Shown piece after piece: positions 6,032 to 31,803 of a stretch of DNA of 32,000 nucleotides (its first letter is position 1; each line of letters begins with the position of its first letter). Source of the DNA: Candidatus Saccharimonadota bacterium. GTDB lineage: Bacteria; Patescibacteriota; Microgenomatia; UBA1406; GWC2-37-13. The stretch is from contig CP066689.1 in assembly GCA_016432445.1 (NCBI GenBank), forward strand, positions 690,001 to 722,000, read 5' to 3'. The notes beneath the pieces were generated by a model, which was not told where the DNA came from, ran no database searches, and was given only the letters and a program-made list of their open reading frames with translations. The position numbers and the translations under genes are program-made.

Positions 6032-7548
6032 TTTTTTAAGAGTTTGATCCTGGCTCAGGATGAACGCTAGCGGTGTGCCTGAGATATGCAAGTCGAGCGT
6101 CCCCGCCGCAAGGCGGGGTAGTGGCGGACGGCTGAGTAATATATAGGAACCTGCCTTTTTCTGGAGGATAGCCCCGCGAAAGCGGGGGTAATACTTCATG
6201 GTCCAGATACCATCTGGTACCTGGTAAAGGACGTAACTGTCCGGAAAAAGATGGGCCTATATTCTATCAGGTAGTTGGTAGGGTAATGGCCTACCAAGCC
6301 TATGACGGATAGCTGGTTTGAGAGGACGACCAGCCAGAGGGGGACTGAGACACGGCCCCCACTCCTACGGGAGGCAGCAATCAGGAATAGTCGGCAATGG
6401 GCGAAAGCCTGACCGCGCGACACCGCGTGCGGGATGAAGGTCTAAACGATCGTAAACCGCTGTGGTAGGGGAAGAAGTAGGCCATTGGCCTATTGACGGT
6501 ACCCTACTAGAAAGGAGCCGCTAACTGCGTGCCAGAAGCGTCGGTAATACGTGGGCTTCAAGCGTTATCCGGTTTTACTGGGCGTAAAAGGTCGTGTAGG
6601 CGGTTTGATAAGTTATCTCTTAAATTTTCTCGCTCAACGAGAAGCTTGGAGATAATACTATCAAACTTGAGTTTTCTTAAGGGAGACTGGAACTGAGGGA
6701 GGAGTAGTGAAATGCGTTGATACCCTCGGGAACACCAGTGGCGAAGGCGAGTCTCTGGAAGGAAACTGACGCTGAGACACGAAAGCTAGGGGAGCGAAGC
6801 AGATTAGAGACCTGCGTAGTCCTAGCCCTAAACGAATGCCTGCTGGCTGCATGGTTTCCCGACTTTGTCGAGGATTTCGTGTGGCGAAGGTAACCCGTTA
6901 AGCAGGCCGCCTGGGGAGTACGACCGCAAGGTTAAAACTCAAAGGAATTGGCGGGGAGGCACACAACCAGTGGAACATGTGGTTCAATTCGATACGAACC
7001 GAAGAACCTCACCAGGGCTTGAAATCCAAGCGTCCTATCCCGAGGAAACTCGGGAAATTCGCAAGAAGGTTTGGACAGGTACTGCATGGCTGTCGTCAGT
7101 TCGTTCCGTGAGGAGTGCCCTTAAGTGGGACAACGAACGCAACCCCTATCTTGTGTTAAATTTGTCACAAGAGACTGCCCCGCCTATGGCGGGGAGGAAG
7201 GAGGGGCAGACGTCAAGTCAGCATGGTCCTTATGCCCTGGGCTACACACATGTTACAATGAATAAAACAACGGGCTTTGCAAACGCGCAAGTGTAAGCAA
7301 ATCCCTTAAATTTATTCTCAGTGGGGATTGAGGTCTGCAACTCGACCTCATGAACGCGGAATTGGTAGTAATCGCGGATCAGCTATGCCGCGGTGAATAC
7401 GTTCTTGCCTCTTGCACACACCGCCCGTCAAGCCAACAAAGTCGGTGGCATTTGAACCCCGCTCAGCGGGGGAGAATTTCATCGGCGATGAGGGTTAAGT
7501 CGTAACAAGGTATCCGTTCTGGAAGGAGCGGATGGATCACCTCCTTTC
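6032..7548 (+). rRNA. rrs: 16S ribosomal RNA (about 1.5 kb, no large insertion)
   Basis: AGAGTTTGATCCTGGCTCAG at 6039. ACTCCTACGGGAGGCAGCA is present. CACACCGCCCGTCA is present. AAGTCGTAACAAGGTATCC...GGATCACCTCCTTTCT ends near 7548. The ends are approximate to a few nt. Confidence 0.95.
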
Positions 7549-7649: not shown

Positions 7650-7684
7650 TTATTGGTCTAAAACTAACTCATAAAAATAAAGAA

Positions 7685-8926
7685 TTAAAAACCAAGCAGT
7701 TTTCCAAAACCTCCAAGCAAAGCAGCAATAGTAATTGCTACACCTGATACTATTAATAGTATATTTTGTACTTTATTATTTTTATAACTTCCCATCAGTT
7801 CTTCACTGTTGGCTAATTTGTATAAAAAGAAGAAAATCACAGGCAACATAAGTCCATTCAAAAAGTCCGCATAAAGAGTAATATTAAACAAAGATATATT
7901 AGGAAACCAAATAAATATCGTTCCTAAAATAATCTGCAGAAGAAAAAAACCATAAAAGAATTTACTTTTATCCAAACTTGTATCAAGACTTCCTTCATAA
8001 CCAAAAAACTCCGAAAAAGCATAAGCGGTAGCCAAGGGAACTATTGCTAAACCCAAAAAACCAGCAATTAAAAGTCCTACACCAAAAAACGTACTAGCTA
8101 ATGCACCAGCCACAGGCTTAATAGCAAGTGCCGCATCTGCCGCTCCAGTAATTTGAATACCGTTAACAAAAATTGTTGCTATAACAGCAACCATCATAAA
8201 CAAAGAAAACAGGTCTGTTAGAAATGCACCTGCATAAATTTCTAACCGCTGGTACTTGAGTTTTTCAGGAGTAATCTTTTTATCTTTAATATAACTATTG
8301 ATAAAAAATTGTCCCCAGGCCGTAACAGTTGTTCCAAGAACAGCAACTGAGGTATAAAGATAATCAAATGATATTCCGTCTGGAGGTCTCAAAAGTGATC
8401 TTCCAGTAAGGGCCCAATCAGGCTTGGACAAGAGTGCGGAAAAGAAGTAGGCAAGATAAAAGAGTATTAAAAAGAGAAAAAATCTTTCAATTTTAGTGAA
8501 AGATGATCTAATAATGAATAAAAATAAGAATCCAACAAGCAAAGGCAAAAATATACGGTAATCAAGCTGAAATAAGGTTAACGCTGATTTTAAACCTCCA
8601 AGGTTTTGCAAAATAACTCCAAAATTCACGATAAACAAAAGTAAAAACATAAACAAAGCTATTCTTATTCCATATTTCTCGCGTATCAAATCACCTAAAC
8701 CTTTGCCAGTTACAACTGCAATTCTGGCACCAATTTCCTGAGTAATCATAAGAACTATTGTTATTGGTATTAACGTAGTCAGCATTGAGTATCCAAACTT
8801 AGAAGCAGCAACCGAATAAGTTGCAACACCTCCAGCATCATTATCGGCAAACGCAGTAATCAAACCCGGACCGACAACAGCTATTAGAATTAGAAAACGC
8901 CTTTTGAAATGATAAAAAAAATTCAT
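7685..8926 (-). CDS. Nramp/SLC11-related transporter with non-canonical metal-site motifs (NRMT-like, possible Mg2+ transporter)
   Basis: 413 aa, polytopic. It aligns without gaps to MntH TM1 (GPGLITAFADNDAGGVAT against GPAVIASIAYMDPGNFAT) and TM6 (GTTVTAWGQ against GATVMPHVI). DPGN is therefore replaced by DAGG, and MPH by TAW. Confidence 0.75.
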   Translation of the reverse strand: MNFFYHFKRRFLILIAVVGPGLITAFADNDAGGVATYSVAASKFGYSMLTTLIPITIVLMITQEIGARIAVVTGKGLGDLIREKYGIRIALFMFLLLFIVNFGVILQNLGGLKSALTLFQLDYRIFLPLLVGFLFLFIIRSSFTKIERFFLFLILFYLAYFFSALLSKPDWALTGRSLLRPPDGISFDYLYTSVAVLGTTVTAWGQFFINSYIKDKKITPEKLKYQRLEIYAGAFLTDLFSLFMMVAVIATIFVNGIQITGAADAALAIKPVAGALASTFFGVGLLIAGFLGLAIVPLATAYAFSEFFGYEGSLDTSLDKSKFFYGFFLLQIILGTIFIWFPNISLFNITLYADFLNGLMLPVIFFFLYKLANSEELMGSYKNNKVQNILLIVSGVAITIAALLGGFGKLLGF

Positions 8927-8932
8927 TTTATA

Positions 8933-10144
8933 TTACCTTAATCTTCCAAAAACAATTTCTGGTAAATCATCAAATGCAACTATCCCCAGTACATGCCTGT
9001 TTTGATCTATAATAGGCACTGCATTTAATTTATATTTAAACATTTTTGCCAAGGCTATTTCTTTAGGTGTAGTTAGATGAATAACAATCGCATTTTGTGT
9101 CATAAATTTGTAGACGGGTGTATCTAAATTTTGAAGTATCATCTCATGAAGACTAAAAACTCCAACTAGTTTATCTTCTTTGTTTAACACATAAATATAA
9201 TTAAGGAATGAAAAATCAGCCGCTTCTTTTTTAATCTTTGATATAACTTCTTTGACAAGAGTATCAGGAGTTGCAGTTAAAAACTGTGTTGTCATTTTTT
9301 CACCAATTGGTGACTGTGACATTTTAAACAAATGCCTTAACTCTTTTTGTTTCCCAGTGTTAAGAAGGAAAAGAATCTCTTCCCTTTTTTTCTCTGATAA
9401 AGTTAGAAGTATATCTACGGCTTCATCAGGATCTATAATTGAAACAACATGAGCGGCTTTCTCTGGTGAAAACTGTTTAAAGATAGCGCTCTGGTAATTA
9501 ATATTTAAATTCTTGATAATATCAACTGCAAAATCTTCATCCAGCGATTTTAGGATTCTATCTGCATTGACAATATTAATTTTCTCAAGATAATCGGCTA
9601 AATCTTCCGGTCTTATTTTCTTAAGTTTATCTTGTTCTGTCTTTAAGATCACCATGCCTCGTGCAAGCTCAAGCGGCTGAATATCAGCCCATGATAAAAA
9701 TTTAGAGGTTATTTTTACTCCAAAATTGATCAAAATACGTGAAATCATATCTTCAATTCCCAGTCTCCTTAAAATGCCCAAGATACCAATGTCAGCGCCG
9801 GCAATATAATATCCTGGGCGATCGTTTATGGCAACGTCATTAACCCTAACAACTTTATTCCCTTCAATATCAATGATTTGTTGATCCAACAGATTTTTAT
9901 TAAGTAGCAGTTCCTGATTAGTGATATTTTGACTCTCAAACTGCTTACTGATAATTATCTGATGATTAATTGACTCAATAGTTGAAGAGGGAATATTCAG
10001 GTAGTTATTTTCTTTATCTTTCACTATGAGTTTGGTTATTTTTGGGGTATCAGAAACGAGAAAAGCAAGATCTTCAAGTTTTCCTACAAAAACACGGTCC
10101 TCTGTACATACTTGTTTTCCTTTCAGCTCGGAAAAATAAAGCAT
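8933..10144 (-). CDS. soluble PRC-barrel + MgtE N-terminal domain + CBS-pair protein (no MgtE membrane domain)
   Basis: 403 aa. N-terminal PRC-barrel-like repeats are followed by an MgtE_N-like helical region (DLADYLEKI...DPDEAVDILLTL) and then two CBS motifs. There are no hydrophobic segments. It lies 6 nt upstream of the Nramp-like gene on the same strand. Confidence 0.7.
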   Translation of the reverse strand: MLYFSELKGKQVCTEDRVFVGKLEDLAFLVSDTPKITKLIVKDKENNYLNIPSSTIESINHQIIISKQFESQNITNQELLLNKNLLDQQIIDIEGNKVVRVNDVAINDRPGYYIAGADIGILGILRRLGIEDMISRILINFGVKITSKFLSWADIQPLELARGMVILKTEQDKLKKIRPEDLADYLEKINIVNADRILKSLDEDFAVDIIKNLNINYQSAIFKQFSPEKAAHVVSIIDPDEAVDILLTLSEKKREEILFLLNTGKQKELRHLFKMSQSPIGEKMTTQFLTATPDTLVKEVISKIKKEAADFSFLNYIYVLNKEDKLVGVFSLHEMILQNLDTPVYKFMTQNAIVIHLTTPKEIALAKMFKYKLNAVPIIDQNRHVLGIVAFDDLPEIVFGRLR

Positions 10145-10200
10145 AAATGGATTATACCTCTTATATATTAGTACTTCAACCTCTATAAAATTGCTACTTA

Positions 10201-10209
10201 TGCTATAAT
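10201..10209 (+). promoter_or_regulatory. extended -10 promoter element TGCTATAAT upstream of tRNA cluster
   Basis: TGnTATAAT match 48 nt upstream of the first tRNA. The identical 9-mer recurs at 29464-29472. Confidence 0.4.
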
Positions 10210-10256
10210 TTAGTCGACCGTTTATAAACCATAGATAATAATCTATAAACTATTTT

Positions 10257-10457
10257 GGGTGTGTGGCTCAGTGGTAGAGCGCGTTCCTGACCCGCCCGCC
10301 TTGACTTCGCGGTCAAGGGCAATTGGCTCAGTGGTAGAGCGTCGTCCTGATAAGACGAAGGTCGGAGGTTCGATCCCTCCATTGCCCACATTGGAACGTC
10401 AAGGCGAAGTCGGGCGCGGTAAGAACGAGGTCCCAGGTTCGATCCATGGCACACCCA
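10257..10457 (+). tRNA. interrupted tRNA gene (Val-GAC or Ile-GAU depending on junction) whose 129-nt intervening sequence contains a whole tRNA-Ile
   Basis: The 5' part at 10257-10291 reads GGGTGTG TG GCTCAGTGGTAGAGC G CGTTC CTGAC. The 3' part at 10421-10457 reads AA GAACG AGGTC CCAGG TTCGATC CATGG CACACCC A. Together they give a 72-nt cloverleaf with perfect acceptor and anticodon stems. The only flaw is one G:A mismatch in the T stem. Confidence 0.6.
10317..10388 (+). tRNA. tRNA-Ile (anticodon GAU)
   Basis: GGGCAAT TG GCTC AGTGGTA GAGC G TCGTC CTGATAA GACGA AGGTC GGAGG TTCGATC CCTCC ATTGCCC A. The cloverleaf is perfect. C4-G69 and A73 are present. CCA is not encoded. Confidence 0.9.
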
Positions 10458-10478
10458 CCCTTCGCCTAAATACCAATT

Positions 10479-10552
10479 GGACCCGTGGCTCAGTTGGTTA
10501 GAGCGCCTCGTTTACATCGAGGAGGTCATAGGTTCGAGTCCTATCGGGTCCA
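10479..10552 (+). tRNA. tRNA-Val (anticodon UAC)
   Basis: GGACCCG TG GCTC AGTTGGTTA GAGC G CCTCG TTTACAT CGAGG AGGTC ATAGG TTCGAGT CCTAT CGGGTCC A. The cloverleaf is perfect. Confidence 0.9.
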
Positions 10553-10618
10553 CTCTGGCTAGAGCGGTCCGACGTTACGTCGGACATGTTGGGGGTTCGA
10601 AACCTTCAGCGGCCACCA
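10553..10618 (+). pseudogene. 5'-truncated tRNA-like element (T arm, acceptor 3' strand and encoded CCA, but no acceptor 5' strand)
   Basis: Starts directly after tRNA-Val. Reads ...TGGCTAGAGC G GTCCGACGTTACGTCGGAC ATGTT GGGGG TTCGAAA CCTTC AGCGGCC A CCA. There is no GGCCGCT partner upstream. The D arm is about 8 nt too short. The anticodon arm is a perfect 19-nt palindrome. Confidence 0.5.
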
Positions 10619-22405: not shown

Positions 22406-23465
22406 ATACAATAATGATATGTTCTACCATACCTATAGACCAAAAACTATAAGTGAACTTGATAACGGCCAAGTAAAGGAGAGAGTTACCGCTATACTCG
22501 AAAATAAGACCCTTCCGCACGCCTTTCTTTTCACTGGACAAAAAGGAACAGGCAAGACTTCAACTGCCCGCATTTTTGCCAAAGCGGTAAATTGCCTAAA
22601 AAATACATTTGCTTCCCACGGAAGTTCTGTTGAGCCTTGCAATAAATGCACAAATTGTCTGAGTATTGACTCATCATCTTCTCCTGATGTGGTTGAGCTT
22701 GATGCCGCATCAAATCGAGGGATAGATGAAATAAGATCTCTTATCAGAAACTCTATCTTTTCCCCTATGAATAACCGCTACAGAATTTTTATCATTGATG
22801 AAGCTCATATGATTACTCACGATGCTTTTAATGCTTTGCTTAAAACATTAGAAGAACCTCCTTCCTCGGTAATCTTTATTCTAGCTACTACTAATGAAGA
22901 AAAAGTACCTAAAACCATAAGTTCACGCTGTATTATAATTCCTTTTGGAAAAGCAAGAAAAGACGAGATTAAATCCATGCTCAAAAGAATCGCAGTCAAT
23001 GAAAAAATCACAGTTGATAATGACTTTTTCGATATCATTGCCGCCCATAGCGAAAAATCTTTTAGAGATGCCACTAAATTATTTCAGGAACTTATTATCC
23101 AAAACAGGCTAACTTCTGATAAAGCTAAGGAGTATTTAGGCATTCAATCAAAACAGGATTTAATTCAAATAATTCAGGCCAAACCACTAAAGGAAACCTT
23201 AATCTGGATAAATGAGTACAGTGATACCGGAGGAAACGTCAAAATCCTAATAGAGAATCTTCTTAATGACCTCAGAATGGCCTTGCTTATTAAAAGCGGT
23301 GCCGTAAACAACAGCAGTCAAAAAAATCTCTTATCAATAAACGATATTACACTTTTGATGAAACTTTTGAATGAAGCCTATCAAAATCTGAGATTCTCAC
23401 CGATTGACTCAATTCCTCTTGAGATTGCAGTTGTAGAGTTTTATAATAAAAGAAAAGATTCATGA
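22401..23465 (+). CDS. dnaX: DNA polymerase III subunit gamma/tau (short)
   Basis: 354 aa. Contains FLFTGQKGTGKTSTARIFAKAVNC, a Cys zinc module and IIDEAHMIT. Confidence 0.9.
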   Translation: MTYNNDMFYHTYRPKTISELDNGQVKERVTAILENKTLPHAFLFTGQKGTGKTSTARIFAKAVNCLKNTFASHGSSVEPCNKCTNCLSIDSSSSPDVVELDAASNRGIDEIRSLIRNSIFSPMNNRYRIFIIDEAHMITHDAFNALLKTLEEPPSSVIFILATTNEEKVPKTISSRCIIIPFGKARKDEIKSMLKRIAVNEKITVDNDFFDIIAAHSEKSFRDATKLFQELIIQNRLTSDKAKEYLGIQSKQDLIQIIQAKPLKETLIWINEYSDTGGNVKILIENLLNDLRMALLIKSGAVNNSSQKNLLSINDITLLMKLLNEAYQNLRFSPIDSIPLEIAVVEFYNKRKDS

Positions 23466-23537
23466 TTTACGATTCACGATTTATGAATTATTCATTCTTG
23501 AATCATGAATCTTGTATCGTGAATCATAATAATTACT
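23466..23537. repeat. phased heptamer hairpin spacer (GATTNAN / TGAATCN)
   Basis: GATTCAC GATTTAT GAATTAT TCATTCT TGAATCA TGAATCT TGTATCG TGAATCA TAATAAT. It fills the dnaX-ybaB spacer. Confidence 0.8.
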
Positions 23538-23801: not shown

Positions 23802-23886
23802 GGTCGTTATGGGTTATGAGTGATGGGTGATGAGTAATATTAAATGTTTGAACCCATAACCCACAACCCATCACCCAAAACTAATT
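23802..23886. repeat. phased heptamer hairpin spacer (TGNGTNA / ACCCANN)
   Basis: TGGGTTA TGAGTGA TGGGTGA TGAGTAA TATTAAA TGTTTGA ACCCATA ACCCACA ACCCATC ACCCAAA ACTAATT, followed by the prs ATG. Confidence 0.85.
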
Positions 23887-24825
23887 ATGTTAAAACTATT
23901 CTCAGGCACGGGTAATCCTGACTTAAGTCAGGAAGTAGCTCAGCTTCTTAAAATATCTTTATCTGCATCAGAGGTCGTACGATTTGAAAACTCAGAAGTC
24001 AGAGTCAGAATTGAGGAGGATGTCAAAAATGATATCTGTGCCGTAATTCAGCCAATTGCCAATCCTACAGATACTAATTTGATGGAGATGTTCTTATTTT
24101 GCGATGCTTTAAGAAGACAAGAAGCCCATAAAGTGATCGGTATCATACCTTATTTTGGTTATGCCCGTCAAGACATTCAACACAGAGAAGGGGAATGCGT
24201 TTCAATTAGCGTCATCATCAGATTTTTAGAATCCATTGGTTTTAATAAAGTGTATACTTTTGATCTTCATGATGAGGCTACCTCCGGTGTTTTTTCCATC
24301 CCTTTTAAAGACTTAACTTCTCTTAATGTTTTGGCTAATGACGTCAAAAAAACTTTGGGGAAAAGCTTCAACAGAGATTCTGTGGTAGTTGTTTCACCAG
24401 ATCAGGGAGGTATTGAAAGAACAAGAAATTTTGGCAGATTTTTGTATGGTGATGACTATTTCTCAGTCTCGGTAATTGAAAAAAAGAGAGACTTAGCCCA
24501 TATTCATCAAAGCGGAGCCTTAAACCTCTTCGGAGATGTTAAAGATAAGGTAGCCATTTTAGTAGATGATATTATCACTTCTGGTGGAACTTTAATTCAT
24601 GCCGCTAATCTTTGTAAAGAAAAAGGAGCTAAAAAAATATTTGCTGCTATTGTTCATCACGATTTATCAATAAAAGCTCCTCCAAAAATACAAGAATCAG
24701 CTATTGAAAAAGTTTTCACCACTAATACTGTAAAACTAAAACCTGAGTACAATTTTGAAAAGCTTCATGAAGTCTCCATTGCCTCGATTATTGCCGAAGA
24801 ACTAAAAACATTCAAGAATGTCTAA
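23887..24825 (+). CDS. prs: ribose-phosphate pyrophosphokinase
   Basis: 312 aa. Contains YFGYARQD and the PRPP-binding loop VDDIITSGGTL. Confidence 0.9.
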   Translation: MLKLFSGTGNPDLSQEVAQLLKISLSASEVVRFENSEVRVRIEEDVKNDICAVIQPIANPTDTNLMEMFLFCDALRRQEAHKVIGIIPYFGYARQDIQHREGECVSISVIIRFLESIGFNKVYTFDLHDEATSGVFSIPFKDLTSLNVLANDVKKTLGKSFNRDSVVVVSPDQGGIERTRNFGRFLYGDDYFSVSVIEKKRDLAHIHQSGALNLFGDVKDKVAILVDDIITSGGTLIHAANLCKEKGAKKIFAAIVHHDLSIKAPPKIQESAIEKVFTTNTVKLKPEYNFEKLHEVSIASIIAEELKTFKNV

Positions 24826-24915
24826 ATCCAAATTACAAATGTCAAATGTTTTTGTCATTTAGTTTTTGAACTTTGGATTTGATTTGAAATTTGAACTTTG
24901 ACATTTGAATTTAAA
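24826..24915. repeat. phased heptamer hairpin spacer, CAAAT family
   Basis: TCCAAAT TACAAAT GTCAAAT GTTTTTG TCATTTA ... TTTGAAA TTTGAAC TTTGACA TTTGAAT. It lies between the convergent genes prs and recR. Confidence 0.8.
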
Positions 24916-25668: not shown

Positions 25669-27339
25669 TTAAATTTGTATAACATCCACAACTATCAAAG
25701 GCTTACGTCCTTTTTCCTGATAAAAAAACTTCTCCAAGTACCCCTCAACATCTTTTTTTATAATCCCCAAATCAATAATGTGTTCTTTCCTCGGCTTTAA
25801 CACTTTTTCAACCAACCGCGCGGCTTTCTCAAATAACTCTTCCTCAGCCTTTTCAAAAACAAATCCTCTTGATACAATATTTGGTCGGGCAAGCAACCTT
25901 CCATTGCTATCAACCATAATTAAAGCCACCACAATTCCCTCTGAAGAAAGAGTTTTTCTATCTCTTAAAACCATATTCCCAACATCACCAACTCCATAAG
26001 CATCAACATATATGGTTTTTGTCTCGAGCTCATCTCCCTTATAGGCATTATTACGGGTAAACCAAACAGTCTCACCAATCTCAAGTGTAAAAACATTTTC
26101 TTTAGGGTATCCTAACTCTCCGACAAGTTTTTGATATTGAAGCTGATGTCTTAGTGTTCCGCCAATAGGAATAAAATATCTTGGTTTGGTAAACCTGATT
26201 AAAAATTTTAAATCATCCTGATTTCCATGACCTGATGCATGAAGTTCATCATGAATATCGGAATAAATGACTTCAGCTCCTTGCAAAGATAGCTCCTCTA
26301 TCACATTATAAACCTCATTTTCATTTCCCGGGATTGGGTCCGATGAGAAGATCACCTTGTCACCTGGTTTTATTTTTACATTTTTGTTTTTATTATTAGC
26401 CAGTTTTGATAAAGCTGACTCATACTGGCCCTGAGATCCAGCCACAATCAAACAAACCTTGTTGGGAGGCAGACGCCTAACGTCTTCTTCTTTGGCAGTA
26501 AGAGCATTAGGAATTGGAAGATAGCCAATCTCTGCAGAAAGTCTGGTGTTTTCCCTCATTGACCTTCCTAAAAATACAATTTTACGGTTGAATTTGATTG
26601 CAGCGTCAACGCATTGTCTAATTCTTGAGATATTAGAAGAAAAGGTAGTCATAATAAATTTTCCTTTTGTTTTTCTCATCTCATCCTCAAAAACTTGGCC
26701 GACAATAGCTTCTGACAAAGTTAGACCTTCGCGCTCTGAACCTAATGAATCAGAAAATAAACATAAAATACCTTCATTCCCTGCTTTTGTTATTCCATAA
26801 AAATCAGGCGGAGGTCCAAAAGGAGGAGTCAGATCCATCTTAAAATCAGTACCGTGATAAAGATTTCCAACTGGAGTTTTGATTACCACGTGCATTGTAT
26901 CTGGTATCGAGTGAGTTACAGGAAGAAAATTGAGTTTAAAATCACCAAACTGATACACCTCCCCATACTTAACTTCAGTGACGTTAACGGGTTGATTAAA
27001 TTCTTTAAATTTGTTTTCAATAAAAGCGGCAGTCAGTTTACTTGTATAAACCGGCGGCTTTCCTAACTCAAGATAATGAAAAGGCAAAGCCGAAATATGA
27101 TCTTCATGGCCGTGAGTTAAAACAACTGCCCGGATTTTATCAATCTTATCTTTAAGATAGGTAATATCTGGAATGACAAAATCAACTCCCAGTTCTTTTT
27201 CATGAGGAAAACCAATACCGCAGTCAATAATGAGTATGTCTTTTAAAACCTCGTTTTCATAGATCTCATACACATACATATTCTTGGTAACACCAACAAT
27301 ACCTCCCAAAGCCACAAACCTTACTTTATATTTATCCAT
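25669..27339 (-). CDS. rnj: ribonuclease J
   Basis: 556 aa. Metallo-beta-lactamase motif VLTHGHEDHISALP, a beta-CASP region (HASGHG) and a C-terminal domain. Confidence 0.9.
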   Translation of the reverse strand: MDKYKVRFVALGGIVGVTKNMYVYEIYENEVLKDILIIDCGIGFPHEKELGVDFVIPDITYLKDKIDKIRAVVLTHGHEDHISALPFHYLELGKPPVYTSKLTAAFIENKFKEFNQPVNVTEVKYGEVYQFGDFKLNFLPVTHSIPDTMHVVIKTPVGNLYHGTDFKMDLTPPFGPPPDFYGITKAGNEGILCLFSDSLGSEREGLTLSEAIVGQVFEDEMRKTKGKFIMTTFSSNISRIRQCVDAAIKFNRKIVFLGRSMRENTRLSAEIGYLPIPNALTAKEEDVRRLPPNKVCLIVAGSQGQYESALSKLANNKNKNVKIKPGDKVIFSSDPIPGNENEVYNVIEELSLQGAEVIYSDIHDELHASGHGNQDDLKFLIRFTKPRYFIPIGGTLRHQLQYQKLVGELGYPKENVFTLEIGETVWFTRNNAYKGDELETKTIYVDAYGVGDVGNMVLRDRKTLSSEGIVVALIMVDSNGRLLARPNIVSRGFVFEKAEEELFEKAARLVEKVLKPRKEHIIDLGIIKKDVEGYLEKFFYQEKGRKPLIVVDVIQI

Positions 27340-27581
27340 GTTTTAATTATATACCACACCTCTTTAATTTTCTCAGGCATTGCTTTCAAATGCTCAATTA
27401 AAGTAATTAAAGTGAGGATGAACTAGAAAAAGCATTCTTATTTTTATCGCACTTTTACAAAACGGGAAAGCTAATTCATCCAGCTAGGTTACATATCAAA
27501 ATTTTACGTATGTGCGCTTAATGGGTGAATAAAGTGTATGTGCGATCAGGATAGATAACTTCAAAAGAAAGGAAAAGAGAC

Positions 27582-27743
27582 ATGCCCGTATATGACGATA
27601 GGACAGTACCTACTCAACCGGCAGGTTGCACTTGCAAGGGTCTTGGCACTTGCCCATACTGCAGGTCAACAAGAATCCGGCCACTAGGTCAACGACCCAT
27701 CGGAGATAAGCCAACGCCACCTGGCCGGCGAATCGTCTGCTAA
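27582..27743 (+). CDS. small Cys-rich protein (53 aa), cassette 0
   Basis: Below the size cutoff of the track. SD GAAAGGAAAAGAG sits 2 nt before the ATG. Sequence MPVYDDRTVPTQPAGCTCKGLGTCPYCRSTRIRPLGQRPIGDKPTPPGRRIVC. Codon composition is G+C-rich, unlike the host genes. Confidence 0.55.
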   Translation: MPVYDDRTVPTQPAGCTCKGLGTCPYCRSTRIRPLGQRPIGDKPTPPGRRIVC

Positions 27744-27818
27744 AGTAACGCAAACCGCTGAGACTTGAGAGAAATCACCCACTCTTAAGTCTTTTGCGGC
27801 AAAAGGAAAGGATGCAAT

Positions 27819-27986
27819 ATGACACCAGTTCTAGCAACAACGCTAAACTATGCAGTTAACACATTCTACATCTTGGTAGCCATCATTGTTGCCGCTATCG
27901 CCCTTGCTTTCATCATTGTAGCAGGATACCTCTTTTGCGTAATCATCCTCCTGGATGAACTGGGTATACTGCGCTTTGGAGACTAG
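27819..27986 (+). CDS. small hydrophobic protein (55 aa, TM segment plus acidic tail), cassette 0
   Basis: SD AAAGGAAAGGA before the ATG. Sequence MTPVLATTLNYAVNTFYILVAIIVAAIALAFIIVAGYLFCVIILLDELGILRFGD. Confidence 0.55.
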   Translation: MTPVLATTLNYAVNTFYILVAIIVAAIALAFIIVAGYLFCVIILLDELGILRFGD

Positions 27987-27990
27987 ACTG

Positions 27991-28076
27991 TACTTTCCCG
28001 TACATACGGCGGATTTGGTGAGATTGGTCCAACGTGACCCATGCTCTGCATGTAAAAAATCTTAACCAAATCCGCC
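27991..28076 (+). other. conserved three-way-junction element E1 (end of cassette 0)
   Basis: ACTTTCCCG lead-in. The 18-bp closing stem pairs GGCGGATTTGGTGAGATT with AATCTTAACCAAATCCGCC. Inner hairpins are GGTC-CAACGT-GACC and CATGC-TCT-GCATG. Homologous to E2 and E3. Confidence 0.65.
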
Positions 28077-28350
28077 GCCTCAATTCTCTCACATAACTAA
28101 TTTATTCATTAAAAGATATTTTGATCTACTATGAGCTATTGATTTTAAAAATTTAAAAGATTAATATCAGCACAATATGGAGAGGTTATCTTCAAAAAGG
28201 GTCTTTTTTGCATCCTTGGCTAGAGAGTCTCTCCTTTTTTTGTGCCTTTAATTATGCTCTAAAAGCATAGAGCCTAAACTAAAAGGCGCACTTTAATAAA
28301 AAGGGAAAGTCAAATCGCCCGCCCAAAAATAACAGGGGAAAAGAGAAAAT

Positions 28351-28416
28351 AAATCCAAATGTCAAAATTCAAATTTCAAAATTTTATTTGACATTTGTCA
28401 TTTGAACTTTGGATTT
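28351..28416. repeat. phased heptamer hairpin spacer, CAAAT family
   Basis: TCCAAAT GTCAAAA TTCAAAT TTCAAAA TTTTATT TGACATT TGTCATT TGAACTT TGGATTT. Confidence 0.8.
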
Positions 28417-28428
28417 CGTTTGTTTTCT

Positions 28429-28531
28429 TCTTGTCCCTGTTATCGGATAACTTAAGAAAAAGATACCGGATGTATCTTTAACTACCCCTAAAGTAGTTTG
28501 CAAGTTATGGGATGGACGATAAAGGGGACTT
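28429..28531 (+). promoter_or_regulatory. structured 5' leader of cassette A (conserved with cassette B)
   Basis: GTCCCTGTTATCG (28433-28445) pairs with CGATAAAGGGGAC (28517-28529). ATAACTT pairs with AAGTTAT. Two inner hairpins are AGATA...TATCT and AACTAC...GTAGTT. The leader ends 25 nt before the ATG. Confidence 0.5.
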
Positions 28532-28555
28532 GATGACCGGGTATGAGGAGGCCAT

Positions 28556-28897
28556 ATGAACTTAATAAGAGCAATTGTAGTCATTGTTGGCTACTACTTG
28601 CTGTCACTGGCAATAGTCAACTGGTTTGGCAATAGCGCTTGGTTGTTGTTCGTCGTACCCGCCGCAGCCTTAGTTGCTGTCTACTGGGTAGCAACGCAAA
28701 AGCGCGTCTTGAGTACATCTCAGGTAGTGCTTTATGCTATTGGCGCGTGGGTTGTGTCTGCAATAGTAAACGCAATGCTTCCTGAACAGTCCAACGTCTG
28801 GATGCTAATCGTGGCTGTCGCGGTCGCATTAGTTTACGAACTTTCCATCCGACAAGAGACATCCTCACCACGATCCACTGGATGGCAAACACGCTAG
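28556..28897 (+). CDS. 4-TM small membrane protein (113 aa), cassette A; paralog of 30047-30370
   Basis: ORF track. SD GAGGAGG. VIVGYYLLSLAIVNWFGNSAWLLF...ALVYELSIRQ aligns with VAIGYYLVSVGIVYLLNSNAWWLL...AFVYEKSVIR. Confidence 0.7.
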   Translation: MNLIRAIVVIVGYYLLSLAIVNWFGNSAWLLFVVPAAALVAVYWVATQKRVLSTSQVVLYAIGAWVVSAIVNAMLPEQSNVWMLIVAVAVALVYELSIRQETSSPRSTGWQTR

Positions 28898-28962
28898 TAG
28901 AAACAGAACGTTAGGATTACACCCCTCCTTACGAACTGTAATTCAGCCATGAAAGGAACAAA

Positions 28963-29097
28963 ATGAGCGCGGAACCAATCTTCGAAGCCTTCTTTTGGTG
29001 GATTGGAGGTTTCATCATCACATTCTTCGGAGCCGCCGCGATAGGCGCAACCACCTGGTTCATTCGGCTACTTCGCCATTTAAAGGAGGTTGTGTAA
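28963..29097 (+). CDS. small hydrophobic protein (44 aa), cassette A
   Basis: SD GAAAGGAAC. Sequence MSAEPIFEAFFWWIGGFIITFFGAAAIGATTWFIRLLRHLKEVV. Confidence 0.5.
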   Translation: MSAEPIFEAFFWWIGGFIITFFGAAAIGATTWFIRLLRHLKEVV

Positions 29098-29158
29098 CTT
29101 GAGATCGTAACCCCCCGTGCGAAGTTTACCTCGATGAAGACAGAAAGGAGAAGCATAA

Positions 29159-29335
29159 ATGCCTGTTTTATTTGTTGACATCCCTGACGACAAGGTTGCA
29201 GAATTTGTTAGACGCTACATGGAAGCTTTGCATAACAAACACGGCGTTCATTTCACAGCCACAATGACTAATGTCGCCAACGCCCCTCTTTTCCCAGATC
29301 GTTTACCAGCAGACAAGGCCGCCACGATTGTCTAA
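29159..29335 (+). CDS. small soluble protein (58 aa), cassette A
   Basis: SD GAAAGGAGAAGC. Sequence MPVLFVDIPDDKVAEFVRRYMEALHNKHGVHFTATMTNVANAPLFPDRLPADKAATIV. Confidence 0.5.
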   Translation: MPVLFVDIPDDKVAEFVRRYMEALHNKHGVHFTATMTNVANAPLFPDRLPADKAATIV

Positions 29336-29347
29336 ACGACTACTCCA

Positions 29348-29439
29348 GACTTTCCCGCGCTTGCGTCGGGTTTTATTAGGTTTGATTGCGCCCTGCAGTC
29401 AACATGCACCCGCATGTACAACCGAAATAAACCCGACGC
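29348..29439 (+). other. conserved three-way-junction element E2 (end of cassette A)
   Basis: ACTTTCCCGCGCTT lead-in. The closing stem pairs GCGTCGGGTTTTATT with AAATAAACCCGACGC. Inner hairpins are GATTGC-GCCCT-GCAGTC and CATGC-ACCC-GCATG. Confidence 0.65.
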
Positions 29440-29463
29440 TTCCACTTCCTCTAAAATAATAAC

Positions 29464-29472
29464 TGCTATAAT
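29464..29472 (+). promoter_or_regulatory. extended -10 element TGCTATAAT, 7 nt before the ATG (possible leaderless transcript)
   Basis: TGCTATAAT-TTAGGTC-ATG(29480). There is no SD. Confidence 0.35.
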
Positions 29473-29479
29473 TTAGGTC

Positions 29480-29785
29480 ATGAAAATCTCTGCCAAAAAA
29501 GTTAAGGAAACGCTTCTTGAGGTTATTGATCCTGAGCTTAATGTTTCCATAGTTGATCTTGGACTAATTTATAAAATAAATGTCAGTAAAGAAAATAAAG
29601 TTAAAATAACTATGACGCTTACTTCCATAGGCTGTCCTCTTTTTCCCCAGATTGAAGATGATATAAAAACTAAACTTAAAAAATTAGGAATAAAAGAAAA
29701 AGATATTGCTATTGAACTTACTTTTGACCCTCCCTGGTCTATAGAAAAAATGTCTGAAACTGCTAAAGCTATTCTTGGAATTTGA
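29480..29785 (+). CDS. DUF59 / MIP18-family (SufT/PaaD-like) Fe-S cluster assembly-associated protein
   Basis: 101 aa. Contains LLEVIDPELNVSIVDLGLIY...TLTSIGCPL. Composition is AT-rich and host-like. Confidence 0.7.
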   Translation: MKISAKKVKETLLEVIDPELNVSIVDLGLIYKINVSKENKVKITMTLTSIGCPLFPQIEDDIKTKLKKLGIKEKDIAIELTFDPPWSIEKMSETAKAILGI

Positions 29786-29950
29786 TTTTTACATATAAAG
29801 AGTACTATAATCTGCTTCAATTCAGAGAAAATAAGTCTTAAGCATGGCTTATGTGTTCTCACGCACCATAACAACGCGCGAAAAGTTTACATAAAATCAT
29901 TCTCACCAAATTGATGACAGGGATAAAAAGGAAATAATTTTTTATTTTTT

Positions 29951-30016
29951 TCTTGTCCCGGTCATCATCAACTTGGCTTAAAAACCCATGTTGGGTGGAA
30001 TGATGATAAGGACAAT
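29951..30016 (+). promoter_or_regulatory. structured 5' leader of cassette B (conserved with cassette A)
   Basis: TTGTCC..T.ATCATC (29953-29969) pairs with GATGAT.A.GGACAA (30002-30015). The 5' strand TTCTTGTCCCNGTNATC is shared with cassette A, and the 3' strand carries compensating differences. Confidence 0.5.
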
Positions 30017-30046
30017 GATGGAATTTCAGTGAATAAGGAGGACAAC

Positions 30047-30370
30047 GTGAAAAAAAACACTATCTTCGTTGCTATTGGATACTATTTGGTGTCTGTAGGT
30101 ATAGTATACCTACTCAATAGCAACGCATGGTGGCTACTGGCTCTTTCATCAGCTCTACTTGGGTTCATCTATTGGCTTTTCACCTTCGAAACATACGAAG
30201 CCAATATCGTCTTGTGCGTCCTAACCGGTTCCTGCATATCTATTGGAGGAGACATCATAGCACACAATCTATCATTCCTCATATTGCTAGCTGTGTGTCC
30301 TATCACTGCCTTCGTGTACGAGAAATCTGTCATACGAGCAGTACCTCCTCCCCAAAACTCGCCGTGTTAA
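30047..30370 (+). CDS. 4-TM small membrane protein (107 aa from GTG 30047), cassette B; paralog of 28556-28897
   Basis: SD AAGGAGG lies 5 nt before the GTG at 30047. Alignment to the cassette A paralog favours this start over the track start at 30029. Confidence 0.7.
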   Translation: MKKNTIFVAIGYYLVSVGIVYLLNSNAWWLLALSSALLGFIYWLFTFETYEANIVLCVLTGSCISIGGDIIAHNLSFLILLAVCPITAFVYEKSVIRAVPPPQNSPC

Positions 30371-30441
30371 ATAACTTGCAGAAAGTGAGAAGTCCACCCT
30401 TCTAACCGACTGCTAATCAAACTGATTGAAAGGAGAAGCAG

Positions 30442-30594
30442 ATGAAATCAATCCTGGTCAATGTGGTAGCATGCCTTATCCTCGCGGGCTTTGTCGCTTT
30501 AGGCATCTTCCTGTTCATAATTTCACCGGCCATTTTGGCGATAATGGCTCTGCTGGATATCGAGGTCGTACCCGAAGAACTATTTGAGACATAG
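30442..30594 (+). CDS. small hydrophobic protein (50 aa, TM plus acidic tail), cassette B
   Basis: SD GAAAGGAGAAGC. Sequence MKSILVNVVACLILAGFVALGIFLFIISPAILAIMALLDIEVVPEELFET. The ...LLD-acidic tail resembles the one in 27819-27986. Confidence 0.55.
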   Translation: MKSILVNVVACLILAGFVALGIFLFIISPAILAIMALLDIEVVPEELFET

Positions 30595-30604
30595 GAGGAA
30601 CGAA

Positions 30605-30742
30605 ATGGTACAACGCTGGAAGGATGTCATGTCCTGGTCGATCTTCTTTGGAATGCTTGACACCTTTTCTCACCGTTGTTCATCATTGGGAGAATACGCC
30701 AAATCTTCAATGAACCATTCAACCCGTAAAGGAGAAAAATGA
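30605..30742 (+). CDS. small protein (45 aa), cassette B
   Basis: SD TAGGAGGAA. Sequence MVQRWKDVMSWSIFFGMLDTFSHRCSSLGEYAKSSMNHSTRKGEK. Its stop overlaps the next start (ATGA at 30739). Confidence 0.4.
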   Translation: MVQRWKDVMSWSIFFGMLDTFSHRCSSLGEYAKSSMNHSTRKGEK

Positions 30743-31068
30743 AAAGACCATTAGACCTAGAAGAAAAACCCCAGCGACAAAGGCTACTGGAAAGGTCTCA
30801 AGATTGGCTTGACCAATATATGGCCCCGGCTACCTTTGTCCTCGCATCTATTGGGCTATTACTAATCAGCGTCCTACTGTTTAAACTGGAGCTATTTGTC
30901 TCTCTGCTCGGCAGCATCTGCGCGGGTCTTGTAATTGCGGTGATTGTATCCGTGCTTCAGTTCTACTCCGGTTATCTGAGAGAAAAGTTCAGCTTTCTCA
31001 GAAAATTGGAAGCGCTGGTTCCTCGACGATGGAAATTCTCTAGAAAAGAGCTCAACTCGGATTGGTAA
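30739..31068 (+). CDS. 2-TM membrane protein (109 aa), cassette B
   Basis: ORF track. SD AAAGGAGAAAA. Translationally coupled to the preceding ORF. Confidence 0.6.
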   Translation: MKRPLDLEEKPQRQRLLERSQDWLDQYMAPATFVLASIGLLLISVLLFKLELFVSLLGSICAGLVIAVIVSVLQFYSGYLREKFSFLRKLEALVPRRWKFSRKELNSDW

Positions 31069-31076
31069 TTTACTTG

Positions 31077-31176
31077 CAACTTTTCGCGCCTCGTGCCGGG
31101 TTAGTTTTAGATTAGACTGCTCTCCCGCAGTCTTCATGCCACCCACGGCATGATCAATCTCTAATTAACTCGGCAC
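31077..31176 (+). other. conserved three-way-junction element E3 (end of cassette B)
   Basis: ACTTTTCGCGCCTC lead-in. The closing stem pairs GTGCCGGGTTAGTT...AGATT with AATCT...AATTAACTCGGCAC. Inner hairpins are GACTGC-TCTCCC-GCAGTC and CATGCC-ACCCAC-GGCATG. Confidence 0.65.
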
Positions 31177-31184
31177 TCATTCTC

Positions 31185-31290
31185 GATCTTAGATTTTAGA
31201 TGTTTGATCTTTGATTGATTGAAATGAAAACTAATTTGTTCTAATCTTATATCTAAGATCAAAGATCTAAGATCGAAGATCTTACTTAAT
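31185..31290. repeat. phased heptamer hairpin spacer (GATNTTN / AAGATCN)
   Basis: GATCTTA GATTTTA GATGTTT GATCTTT ... AAGATCA AAGATCT AAGATCG AAGATCT, running up to the ATG at 31291. Confidence 0.85.
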
Positions 31291-31803
31291 ATGGCTAAAG
31301 GACAGTTTTGGGATGATACATTTGAAAAATTAGCCGAACTTGGCGCCTCAACCGCAAAAAAAACCGGCCAGGCCGTAACCAAAACCTTCAATCCTTTACA
31401 GGCATTTGAACCGGCCGCACCAATACCTACTCCTGAAGAACAACAAAAACTTAATGAAGGAATGAAAAATAAAGACAACCACAGTAAGCTGGACTTTGAA
31501 AAACTTCAAAAAAAATATCAATATCAAGATGAACAAAAGGAAGATGCTTTAAGACAAAGATTATTTCAGCTTGTAAAAAACGACGAAAAAGAAGCTGTTG
31601 AACGCAATAAACAAGAGAAGGAGCAAAAAGAAAAGCAGGAACTCCAGGAACAGGAAGAAAAAAAGAAAAAACAGCAGGAAAGAATACAACAGGAACAATC
31701 AGCCGAAACTCCAAGAGGAAAAGAACGGAAAAGCATTTTCTCCAAGAAAAAACAAGCTCAAAAAGAACATGCCGAATATAAACCCTCTTCAGGAAAGCAA
31801 TAA
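31291..31803 (+). CDS. Lys/Glu/Gln-rich low-complexity protein, function unknown
   Basis: ORF track, 170 aa. Composition is AT-rich and host-like. Confidence 0.55.
   Translation: MAKGQFWDDTFEKLAELGASTAKKTGQAVTKTFNPLQAFEPAAPIPTPEEQQKLNEGMKNKDNHSKLDFEKLQKKYQYQDEQKEDALRQRLFQLVKNDEKEAVERNKQEKEQKEKQELQEQEEKKKKQQERIQQEQSAETPRGKERKSIFSKKKQAQKEHAEYKPSSGKQ

Follow-up and report, generated by a model that had tools for sequence, protein, structure and literature searches.

The stretch of DNA studied here (32,000 nucleotides (nt) of a Candidatus Roizmanbacteria chromosome, assembly GCA_016432445.1, contig CP066689.1, positions 690,001 to 722,000; the window from here on, whose numbering is used throughout) carries three GC-rich blocks at ~27540-28090 (unit 0), ~28440-29450 (unit A) and ~29970-31180 (unit B), with a GC content of 0.44-0.53 against a background of ~0.33. 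The explanation that we favour, with moderate confidence, is that the three blocks form one family of laterally acquired, self-contained, moron-like small-gene expression units, and their description as a repeated foreign module is supported by both synteny and composition. What is new in them is a covarying three-way junction, a set of unit-specific bracket repeats and an insertion inside an operon of a host that does without Shine-Dalgarno (SD) sequences. The genomes of the candidate phyla radiation (CPR, Patescibacteria) are small, compact and AT-rich, and gene gain in them is poorly understood.

The original prediction had described three GC-rich blocks by eye, and their presence is confirmed by the GC content of 200-nt windows, which is 0.44-0.535 at 27500-28099, 28500-29499 and 30100-31199 and 0.29-0.37 in the adjoining DNA. 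Nothing else in the 32 kb reaches this GC content apart from the 16S rRNA gene (6032-7547) and one tRNA cluster. The discontinuity expected in GC content and codon usage is quantitative and extends to third codon positions, codon choice and the balance of Lys and Arg: the GC contents of the first, second and third codon positions (GC1/GC2/GC3) are 0.52/0.40/0.49 in the nine open reading frames (ORFs) of the units and 0.44/0.30/0.26 in 22 host genes, the synonymous codons for Leu, Val and Ile are moved towards those ending in C or G, and K/(K+R) is 0.42 in the unit ORFs vs 0.74 in the host genes. The unit genes are foreign in base, codon and amino-acid composition.

A second contrast concerns the signals for translation. 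All nine unit ORFs, on the + strand, are preceded by a strong SD, whereas the 22 host genes are essentially devoid of it and many of them are apparently leaderless. The duplex that the region from -20 to -3 forms with the 3' end of the 16S rRNA has a mean energy of -9.4 kcal/mol for the nine ORFs vs -2.0 kcal/mol for the host genes (Mann-Whitney p = 2e-5), which bears out the difference that had been read from the letters. Furthermore, 9 of the 17 SD-like clusters on the + strand are located 5-18 nt before the nine starts. The 3' end of the host 16S rRNA is CACCUCCUUUC, that is, the anti-SD is kept. In the case of the host genes, a -10 box is found 6-9 nt before the ATG in 7 of the 22, compared to 5.7% of random positions; a TATAAT-like box ending at that distance from the start and without SD is present, for instance, before the genes at 10144 (-), 14132, 27339 (-) and 29480. 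In seven loci of relatives (L012, L013, L017, L019, L021, L039 and L040) the spacer of 24-51 nt between the RNase J and DUF59 genes consists almost entirely of back-to-back -10 boxes. The boxes at 6-9 nt, the lack of SD and the similar spacers of the relatives suggest that leaderless mRNAs are widespread in the Roizmanbacteria lineage, and the host would start translation of its own genes without SD, often on leaderless mRNAs, while keeping the anti-SD. Nothing relevant was found in the literature on CPR leaderless translation or on integrons.

That the units are additions follows from the comparison of the locus with that of relatives. The loci were collected with the RNase J protein (record titles Candidatus Roizmanbacteria, Microgenomates and Patescibacteria), and in ~17-20 Roizmanbacteria and Microgenomates relatives the genes for RNase J, DUF59 and h170 are direct neighbours, and homologues of the unit proteins are absent from these loci. 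The RNase J-DUF59 spacer of the relatives is 24-165 nt long, usually 24-51 nt, and holds back-to-back TATAAT boxes, and the DUF59-h170 spacer is 0-144 nt long, usually 0-15 nt, a spacing indicative of an operon. Both -10 boxes, that of RNase J and that of DUF59, still adjoin their genes in the window, so that units 0 and A lie exactly between two divergent promoters. Together they represent an insertion of ~2.1 kb (~27360-29460), which includes their AT-rich 5' parts and the AT-rich spacer between them, and unit B is an insertion of ~1.5 kb (~29790-31285) inside the DUF59-h170 operon. All three units have the orientation of this operon, and ~15 nt separate the tail of unit A from the extended -10 box of DUF59. 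By this comparison the units are insertions relative to every relative examined. The blocks had been described as separated by host-like AT-rich DNA, which holds for DUF59 but not for the AT-rich 0/A spacer and the 5' parts, as these belong to the inserted DNA. GC-rich islands at the loci of relatives turned out to be ordinary genes, such as that of a 569-aa secreted protein in L010. We also read ~10 kb on each side of the window from Logan contigs and found no further unit, junction or paralogue there, so that the three copies are confined to 4 kb, the remaining ~46 kb being free of them.

The junctions between the units and their surroundings are not products of assembly. Every junction is reproduced at 100% identity to the window by ten Logan contigs from nine runs, which span those of RNase J with unit 0, of unit 0 with unit A, of unit A with DUF59, of DUF59 with unit B, and of unit B with h170, tRNA-Pro and housekeeping genes. 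Ten independent identical contigs exclude a chimera at the assembly level, and the possibility of mis-assembly left open in the original prediction can be set aside. The identity of all these contigs also leaves no population variation from which a ratio of nonsynonymous to synonymous substitutions (dN/dS) could be derived. Several of the contigs stop within the 115-nt palindrome of unit A (28385-28430); short-read assemblers seem to break at this hairpin, and such loci may be fragmented in other metagenomes.

The three units follow a common plan (Table 1). The 5' part is AT-rich and comprises a left motif, a palindrome (in A and B) and a leader of ~80-110 nt; the core consists of two to four tightly packed SD-led ORFs, mostly for small integral membrane proteins and some of them putatively coupled in translation; and after the last stop come a repeat complementary to the left motif and then the junction with a pyrimidine tail. 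The left motif is ~30 nt long (CGCAC...) and the base of the palindrome common to A and B is TTCTTGTCCCNGTNATC. According to this, the shared leader described earlier consists of the 30-nt left motif plus the palindrome base, the second of which is common to A and B only. The repeats that bracket each unit occupy homologous positions, and the best partner of each left copy is the right copy of its own unit. In unit B, the change from GGGAAAG to GCGAAAAG is compensated on the opposite side of the bracket repeat. The repeat is significant only when the comparison is restricted to homologous positions, as an unrestricted alignment of left and right flanks did not beat the cross-controls. Outside the shared motifs and the A1/B1 pair, the DNA of the units can hardly be aligned, which argues that the conserved pieces are under constraint. 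Neither target-site duplications nor att-like or flanking direct repeats were found around the units.

The element at the 3' end is 71-84 nt long, lies just 3' of the last stop and is Y-shaped, its stems being P1 (outer, long) and P2 (short) and its adjacent hairpins P3 and P4. The P1 strands of the three copies are CGGCGGATTTGGT/ACCAAATCCGCCG, GCGTCGGGTTT/AAACCCGACGC and GTGCCGGGTTAGTT/AATTAACTCGGCAC, while the P4 sequence CATGC/GCATG is unchanged in all three. The pattern CTTT-N13-CGGRTT-N20-36-CATGC-N3-8-GCATG matches the three units, with 0 matches expected, and with a covariance model trained on unit B alone, A is found at 46 bits (E 2.6e-10) and unit 0 at 18.5 bits (E 0.005). In the structural alignment, which was made by hand from three sequences only, each aligned from its own minimum-energy fold, 98.9% of the cells of 34 pairs are paired and 9 pairs are changed on both sides; none of 500 shuffles was as good and slid controls were 28-40% paired. 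The shared 3' element that had been noticed from the letters is thus borne out, and it can now be defined as a conserved three-way junction by the covariance model and the compensatory changes. The + strand of the junction carries 4 G-U pairs, and windows of 150 nt fold better on the + than on the - strand, which for the bare junctions is true of A and B only; the G-U pairs and this bias favour the sense transcript or the top DNA strand as the folding molecule. Rfam 15 has no match at gathering score to the junction or to a whole unit, and at E <=5 it gave only chance microRNA-type matches to the AT-rich palindromes. Neither the covariance model, in 397 kb of relatives and the extended flanks, nor a structure-descriptor scan of the relatives found further junctions. 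The exact pattern has 4 matches in viral contigs, none with the fold, and at least 120 in metagenomes, none with the fold among the matches listed. On these comparisons we regard the junction as a new structured motif, without Rfam match and with three copies in one genome.

Between these ends the blocks carry genes. On the + strand, 0.72, 0.77 and 0.95 of the three cores is taken up by ORFs of 40 aa or more, compared to 0.31-0.45 on the - strand and ~0.31-0.40 in shuffles, and sliding 150-nt folds have z-scores near 0 inside the unit ORFs, like in the RNase J gene, and of -4 to -7 only at the unit ends. We take the blocks to be protein-coding mini-operons and not large RNAs because of this coverage and flat folding, the SD before each of the nine ORFs, the paralogy of A1 and B1, the overlaps between cistrons and the empty Rfam search. 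The ATGA overlap of B3 and B4 indicates translational coupling. The start of B1 is most likely the GTG 5 nt past AAGGAGG, which gives 107 aa instead of the 113 aa first proposed, and the coordinates of B3 have been corrected as well (Table 1). The products comprise two proteins with four predicted transmembrane (TM) helices (A1 and B1), three hydrophobic peptides of 44-55 aa (c0_2, A2 and B2), one two-TM protein (B4) and three small soluble proteins. The grand average of hydropathicity (GRAVY) of c0_2, A2 and B2 is 0.99-1.85, that is, they are small hydrophobic ORFs under about 60 aa. It had been claimed that the blocks share paralogous genes, and this is true of A1 and B1 (28% identity, z = 13.5 against shuffles), which are the only significant pair; the small one- and two-TM proteins resemble each other in composition and in nothing beyond it. 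The NCBI annotation of the genome holds two of the nine SD-led ORFs, A3 and B4. For A1, c0_2, B2 and B3 the only source is Logan gene calls, c0_1 and A2 are absent from all collections, and B1, queried in its 113-aa form, was not found in the collections.

Table 1. Features of the three units and of the host genes around them, in window coordinates (TM, transmembrane; SD, Shine-Dalgarno sequence)
Feature	Coordinates	Strand	Remarks
RNase J gene (QQG43958.1), host, left anchor of conserved synteny	25669-27339	-	TATAAT 6 nt before ATG
Unit 0 left motif CGCACTTTTACAAAACGGGAAAGCTAATTC, holding left repeat ACGGGAAAG (27462-27470)	27448-27477	+	80% identical to unit A copy, E 0.001
c0_1, 53 aa, basic, 5 Cys (CxC-x5-CxxC), SD-led	27582-27743	+	no family or PDB match
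Hairpin between the two unit 0 cistrons	27755-27799	+	z = -3.9
c0_2, 55 aa, very hydrophobic (GRAVY 1.79), SD-led	27819-27986	+	
Unit 0 right inverted repeat CTTTCCCGT, complement of 27462-27470	27993-28001	+	9 nt, p = 0.001
Unit 0 three-way junction (helices P1-P4), then pyrimidine tail TCAATTCTCTCAC to 28091	28007-28077	+	z = -7.7
Intrinsic-terminator-like stem (GGAGAGG...CUCUCC + U7), AT-rich spacer between units 0 and A	28179-28243	+	read from the fold; missed by a simple scan
Unit A left motif, holding left repeat GGGAAAGTC (28303-28311)	28287-28316	+	
Unit A AT-rich 115-nt palindrome, base GATAACAGGG.../...CCCTGTTATC common with unit B	28329-28443	+	z = -5.3
A1, 113 aa, four predicted TM helices, B1 paralogue	28556-28897	+	no homologue
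A2, 44 aa, one hydrophobic segment, SD-led	28963-29097	+	
A3, 58 aa, soluble (QQG43959.1, HYW86_03775)	29159-29335	+	
Unit A right inverted repeat GACTTTCCC	29348-29356	+	9 nt, p = 0.002
Unit A three-way junction, then tail TTCCACTTCCTCT to 29452	29363-29439	+	
DUF59 / Fe-S assembly gene (QQG43960.1), host, neighbour of RNase J in relatives	29480-29785	+	GC3 0.19; TATAAT 7 nt before ATG
Unit B left motif, holding left repeat GCGCGAAAAGTT (29876-29887)	29862-29895	+	
Unit B AT-rich 58-nt palindrome, base homologous to that of unit A	29911-29968	+	z = -6.4
B1, 107 aa, four TM helices, A1 paralogue	30047-30370	+	most likely GTG start; ORF open from 30029
B2, 50 aa, very hydrophobic (GRAVY 1.85)	30442-30594	+	stop overlaps B3 SD (TAGGAGG)
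B3, 45 aa, soluble, basic	30605-30742	+	stop overlaps B4 start (ATGA)
B4, 109 aa, two TM helices between charged ends (QQG43961.1, HYW86_03785)	30739-31068	+	
Unit B right inverted repeat AACTTTTCGCGC, 12/12 complement of 29876-29887	31078-31089	+	p < 5e-5
Unit B three-way junction, then tail TCATTCTCGATCT	31093-31176	+	z = -9.3
Host-type AT-rich palindrome between unit B and h170	31183-31281	.	similar ones fill this spacer in L016, L040 and L042
h170, host 170-aa Lys/Glu-rich gene	31291-31803	+	in relatives usually 0-15 nt after DUF59

Searches for relatives of these proteins returned the proteins themselves. A1 compared to 5.8 billion proteins, and likewise B4 and A3, found only self; the A1/B1 profile, run exhaustively against 1.84 billion representatives, had no homologue besides self; and the 90% clusters of the unit proteins are all singletons. 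The sole non-self match of the profile, a repetitive 830-aa protein (E 1.4e-4, 9 stretches), was taken as compositional, and sub-threshold library matches to UbiA, YijD and AciT are typical of TM composition. The unit proteins match no family in Pfam, PHROGs, PADLOC or NCBIfam and no sequence in the PDB. Against phage and plasmid records tblastn found nothing and blastn of the whole region gave one 49-nt chance match only, and protein-pattern scans of IMG/VR found nothing. The phage or plasmid origin proposed earlier has therefore no relative in phage and plasmid records, PHROGs or IMG/VR to support it. The other source that had been put forward, the organism on which an episymbiont lives, is also disfavoured, at least as a recent transfer from a co-resident, well-sampled organism, because the protein collections include the Logan assemblies that supplied the identical contigs and nevertheless hold no homologue of the A1/B1 profile, B4 or A3. 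Structure prediction, run for A1 and A3, gave poor AlphaFold models (predicted local distance difference test, pLDDT, of 56 and 60, respectively).

How such units might work can be outlined as follows. As the host does without SD but has kept the anti-SD, the SD sites would make the internal unit cistrons translatable, allowing GC-rich polycistronic unit mRNAs to be used in an SD-less cell. The junction would fold in the + strand transcript as a 3'-end element stabilising or ending the mRNA, and the unit-specific complementarity of left and right ends would close the mRNA 5' to 3' or, otherwise, mark the ends of the unit. Judging from their hydrophobicity and TM helices, the products are probably membrane-active and could form, for instance, a toxin/immunity, holin-like or exclusion set in the membrane. 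In the case of a holin/lysis cassette, the units differ in that family-library searches found no lytic enzyme domain in any unit ORF and in their non-phage context. The source may be an unsampled, fast-evolving mobile gene pool and not a well-sampled neighbouring organism. The idea of a repeated, horizontally acquired module, advanced in the original prediction, stands as regards the repetition with shared ends, the insertion relative to all relatives and the foreign composition and SD, and no donor and no phage or plasmid relative has joined these arguments.

Morons have been defined as additional DNA separating genes that are neighbours in related genomes, with their own promoter and terminator, a deviant composition and an insertion mechanism that is unknown (PMC4378225; the concept of Hendrix and Juhala). 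The units are like them in lying between genes that are adjacent in ~17-20 relatives, in having a composition unlike that of the neighbouring genes and in being small, apparently self-contained and devoted to small, often membrane, proteins. They differ from phage morons in being polycistronic and in forming three related copies with inverted-repeat and junction ends, which morons lack. The units can also be compared to small genomic islets of orphan genes, with which they share an atypical composition, the absence from relatives, the lack of homologues and the vicinity of a tRNA gene and a prophage-like element. Unlike such islets, the units are tiny (0.5-1.2 kb), come in several copies and have structured boundaries in common; they interrupt an operon in one case and fall exactly between two promoters in the other, and the contrast with the translation signals of the host is complete.

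Several results weigh against the moron-like explanation. Morons are defined in phage genomes, whereas the units studied here have housekeeping genes of a bacterial chromosome as their neighbours, and the nearest prophage-like element is ~5 kb off, AT-rich and SD-poor. A promoter-like sequence, TTGATT-18-TATAAT (29782-29811), precedes unit B, but a consensus scan found no convincing promoter for units 0 and A. The units end without a canonical terminator, a terminator-like stem being found only at 28179-28243; no U tract follows the junction, which makes a terminator role less than evident. The left repeat of A and B precedes the terminator-like palindrome, which is awkward for 5'-3' pairing within one transcript. 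A function finds no support in Pfam, PHROG, PADLOC, NCBIfam or PDB matches or in the AlphaFold models. As no donor, relative or second genome with the element was found, we base the word lateral on synteny and composition only. Finally, the clustering of three diverged copies in 4 kb, with none in the rest of the region read, points to a local or targeted process that the moron-like model leaves unexplained.

One alternative is that the units are non-autonomous mobile cassettes, in which the junction, perhaps with the inverted repeats, would be a folded single-stranded DNA recombination site, like the attC of integrons or the folded attP of the CTX phage, served by a recombinase encoded elsewhere. 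We regard this as possible but rather unlikely. It would account for conserved ends around differing cargo, for at least two separate insertions in neighbouring spacers in one orientation, for the constancy of P4 in all copies, as expected of a site recognised by a protein, and for the lack of a mobility gene in the units themselves. The resemblance to integron cassettes, or to clusters of attC sites lacking an integrase (CALIN), extends to a small co-oriented cargo with its own ribosome-binding sites and to an imperfect palindromic element of ~70-85 nt after it, whose structure is kept better than its sequence, as is seen in P1 with its compensatory changes. However, the R''/R' core sites are lacking, as AAC comes after GTT and the motif RYYYAAC...GTTRRRY is matched by none of the copies. 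Further differences are that the element forms a three-way junction in which one hairpin is conserved in sequence, that a long non-coding stretch lies 5' in each unit and that the units are no contiguous array, being split by DUF59 and AT-rich palindromic DNA. Neither a tyrosine recombinase nor a transposase was found from 8.6 kb upstream of the window start to ~10 kb past h170, and no integron integrase or attI is nearby; the sole recombinase of that range is the large serine integrase of the AT-rich prophage-like element. The absence of target-site duplications, the failure to find a further copy in relatives or viral contigs (the metagenome matches listed being chance) and the single orientation and context in all assemblies also speak against mobility. 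Miniature inverted-repeat transposable elements (MITEs) and insertion sequences (IS) are a poor model too, as the conserved sequence (left motif, junction and tail) extends outside the 9-12-nt repeats, flanking direct repeats are missing and no transposase was found in ~50 kb around the units. A bolder form of the same idea, which we hold to be doubtful, is that the units are a new kind of mobile gene cassette in CPR, with an SD-led cargo bounded by a unit-specific inverted repeat and a folded junction site and moved by some enzyme into promoter-proximal spacers and operons, in parallel to integron cassettes but with a different site and presumably a different recombinase.

It is also conceivable, although improbable in our opinion, that the units are addiction or killer modules similar to type I toxin-antitoxin systems, with c0_2, A2 and B2 as toxins, 5'-3' pairing and a structured 3' end silencing the mRNA in the manner of hok/sok, and the larger membrane proteins conferring immunity, a function that would be compatible with moron-like units. 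The units share with the repeats of type I systems (hok/sok, the long direct repeats (LDR) ldr/rdl, and ibs/sib) their repetition in intergenic DNA, the tiny and very hydrophobic peptides (GRAVY up to 1.85) behind a strong SD, the complementarity of 5' and 3' ends in each unit, the structured 3' ends and the orphan proteins, and orphan status is usual for type I toxins. Nevertheless, operons of two to four genes with four-TM proteins of 107-113 aa are unlike the known type I loci, the left repeat lies far upstream, beyond the palindrome, and the composition is GC-rich and foreign. No similarity to known toxin families was found, and consensus scans identified no antisense RNA, promoter or terminator and, on the - strand, nothing specific.

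We give little credit to the possibility that selection maintains the GC content of blocks that are native, either as genes specific to the lineage or as large structured non-coding RNAs in which the ORFs occur by chance. In AT-rich genomes GC-rich islands are often RNA genes, as is the 16S gene here, no donor has been found, and A1 and B1 have diverged like old paralogues and are still GC-rich. Against this, the blocks are absent from this locus in all relatives, all nine ORFs are SD-led, with coupling overlaps, and the GC3 of 0.49 and the K/R shift are what a different mutational background would produce. The RNA version was discarded because the z-scores inside the ORFs are ~0, with no excess folding, and because Rfam has no covariance-model match to the units, even at E <=5.

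Still harder to sustain is that the units are invertible, phase-variable segments, with the 9-12-nt inverted repeats as invertase sites flipping the gene block relative to an outside promoter. The unit-specific repeats do bracket the gene block exactly, the promoter-like site of B lies outside its left repeat and a serine recombinase gene is ~5 kb away. However, repeats of 9-12 nt are short, the recombinase in question is the large serine integrase that borders the prophage-like element, only one orientation occurs in the assembled contigs, and the conserved junction and foreign composition would be left unexplained. An assembly chimera containing GC-rich pieces of another organism, which the sharp compositional boundaries might suggest, is effectively refuted by the ten identical contigs described above, the source itself being an NCBI contig of 1,103,789 bp.

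Other features of the region were observed beside the units. The terminator-like stem at 28179-28243 has no ORF in front of it and could end the transcript of unit 0 or belong to a small RNA. AT-rich palindromes made of short tandem units (GATCTTAGAT, AAATCCAAAT, GGGTGATGAGT) fill many intergenic spacers of this lineage, often between convergent genes, and their unit sequence differs at each locus; they were seen in the window at 7666-7790, 23455-23529, 23806-23885, 24824-24912 and 31183-31281, at 1891-1992 of L004 and in the DUF59-h170 spacers of L016, L040 and L042. The apex of the unit A palindrome resembles the one at 24824-24912. These palindromes may be the terminators of the lineage or a palindromic repeat family. 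The h170 protein is kept across Roizmanbacteria at 30-54% identity, has no Pfam or PHROG match and, to judge from the short spacers of the relatives, its gene and that for Fe-S assembly (DUF59) seem to belong to one operon. Further neighbours of the units are the genes for tRNA-Pro, MgsA and cysteinyl-tRNA synthetase (CysRS).

The prophage-like element lies at tRNA-His ~5 kb downstream of unit B (contig L181, 8072-13417, equivalent to ~36458-41803 of the window), with its genes on the - strand. It encodes a large serine integrase (phrog_95, E 4e-82) overlapping the tRNA, a DnaD-like helicase loader, an Xre-type repressor and several proteins of no assigned function; with a GC3 of ~0.2 and almost no SD it is host-like and unlike the units. 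Between the window and this element, a 94-aa ORF (L181 4834-5118, equivalent to ~33220-33504) has a weak similarity to HNH endonucleases (E 0.001, below the Pfam cut-off) and is the only gene of host composition seen with a very strong SD (GGAGGTGA, -16.9 kcal/mol). The 16S rRNA gene is complete (1516 nt) and uninterrupted, and no 23S gene follows it within the window; the DNA after it (7685-10553) holds two protein genes on the - strand, and then come tRNA-Ile and tRNA-Val, ~2.8 kb away. The rRNA genes may be unlinked.

The locus provides a base-resolved case of foreign DNA placed in a two-promoter spacer of ~24-51 nt and in a two-gene operon, neither of which was destroyed. Furthermore, it places foreign genes with strong SD sequences in a host that does not use them and, if these genes are expressed, they would represent a natural test of SD-led polycistronic mRNAs in a leaderless/SD-less organism. 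If the motif is confined to one genome, it is a well-documented but local oddity. It is possible, however, that the junction and the covarying bracket repeat mark cassettes in other genomes, and in that case they would reveal a new vehicle of gene flow in episymbiotic bacteria.

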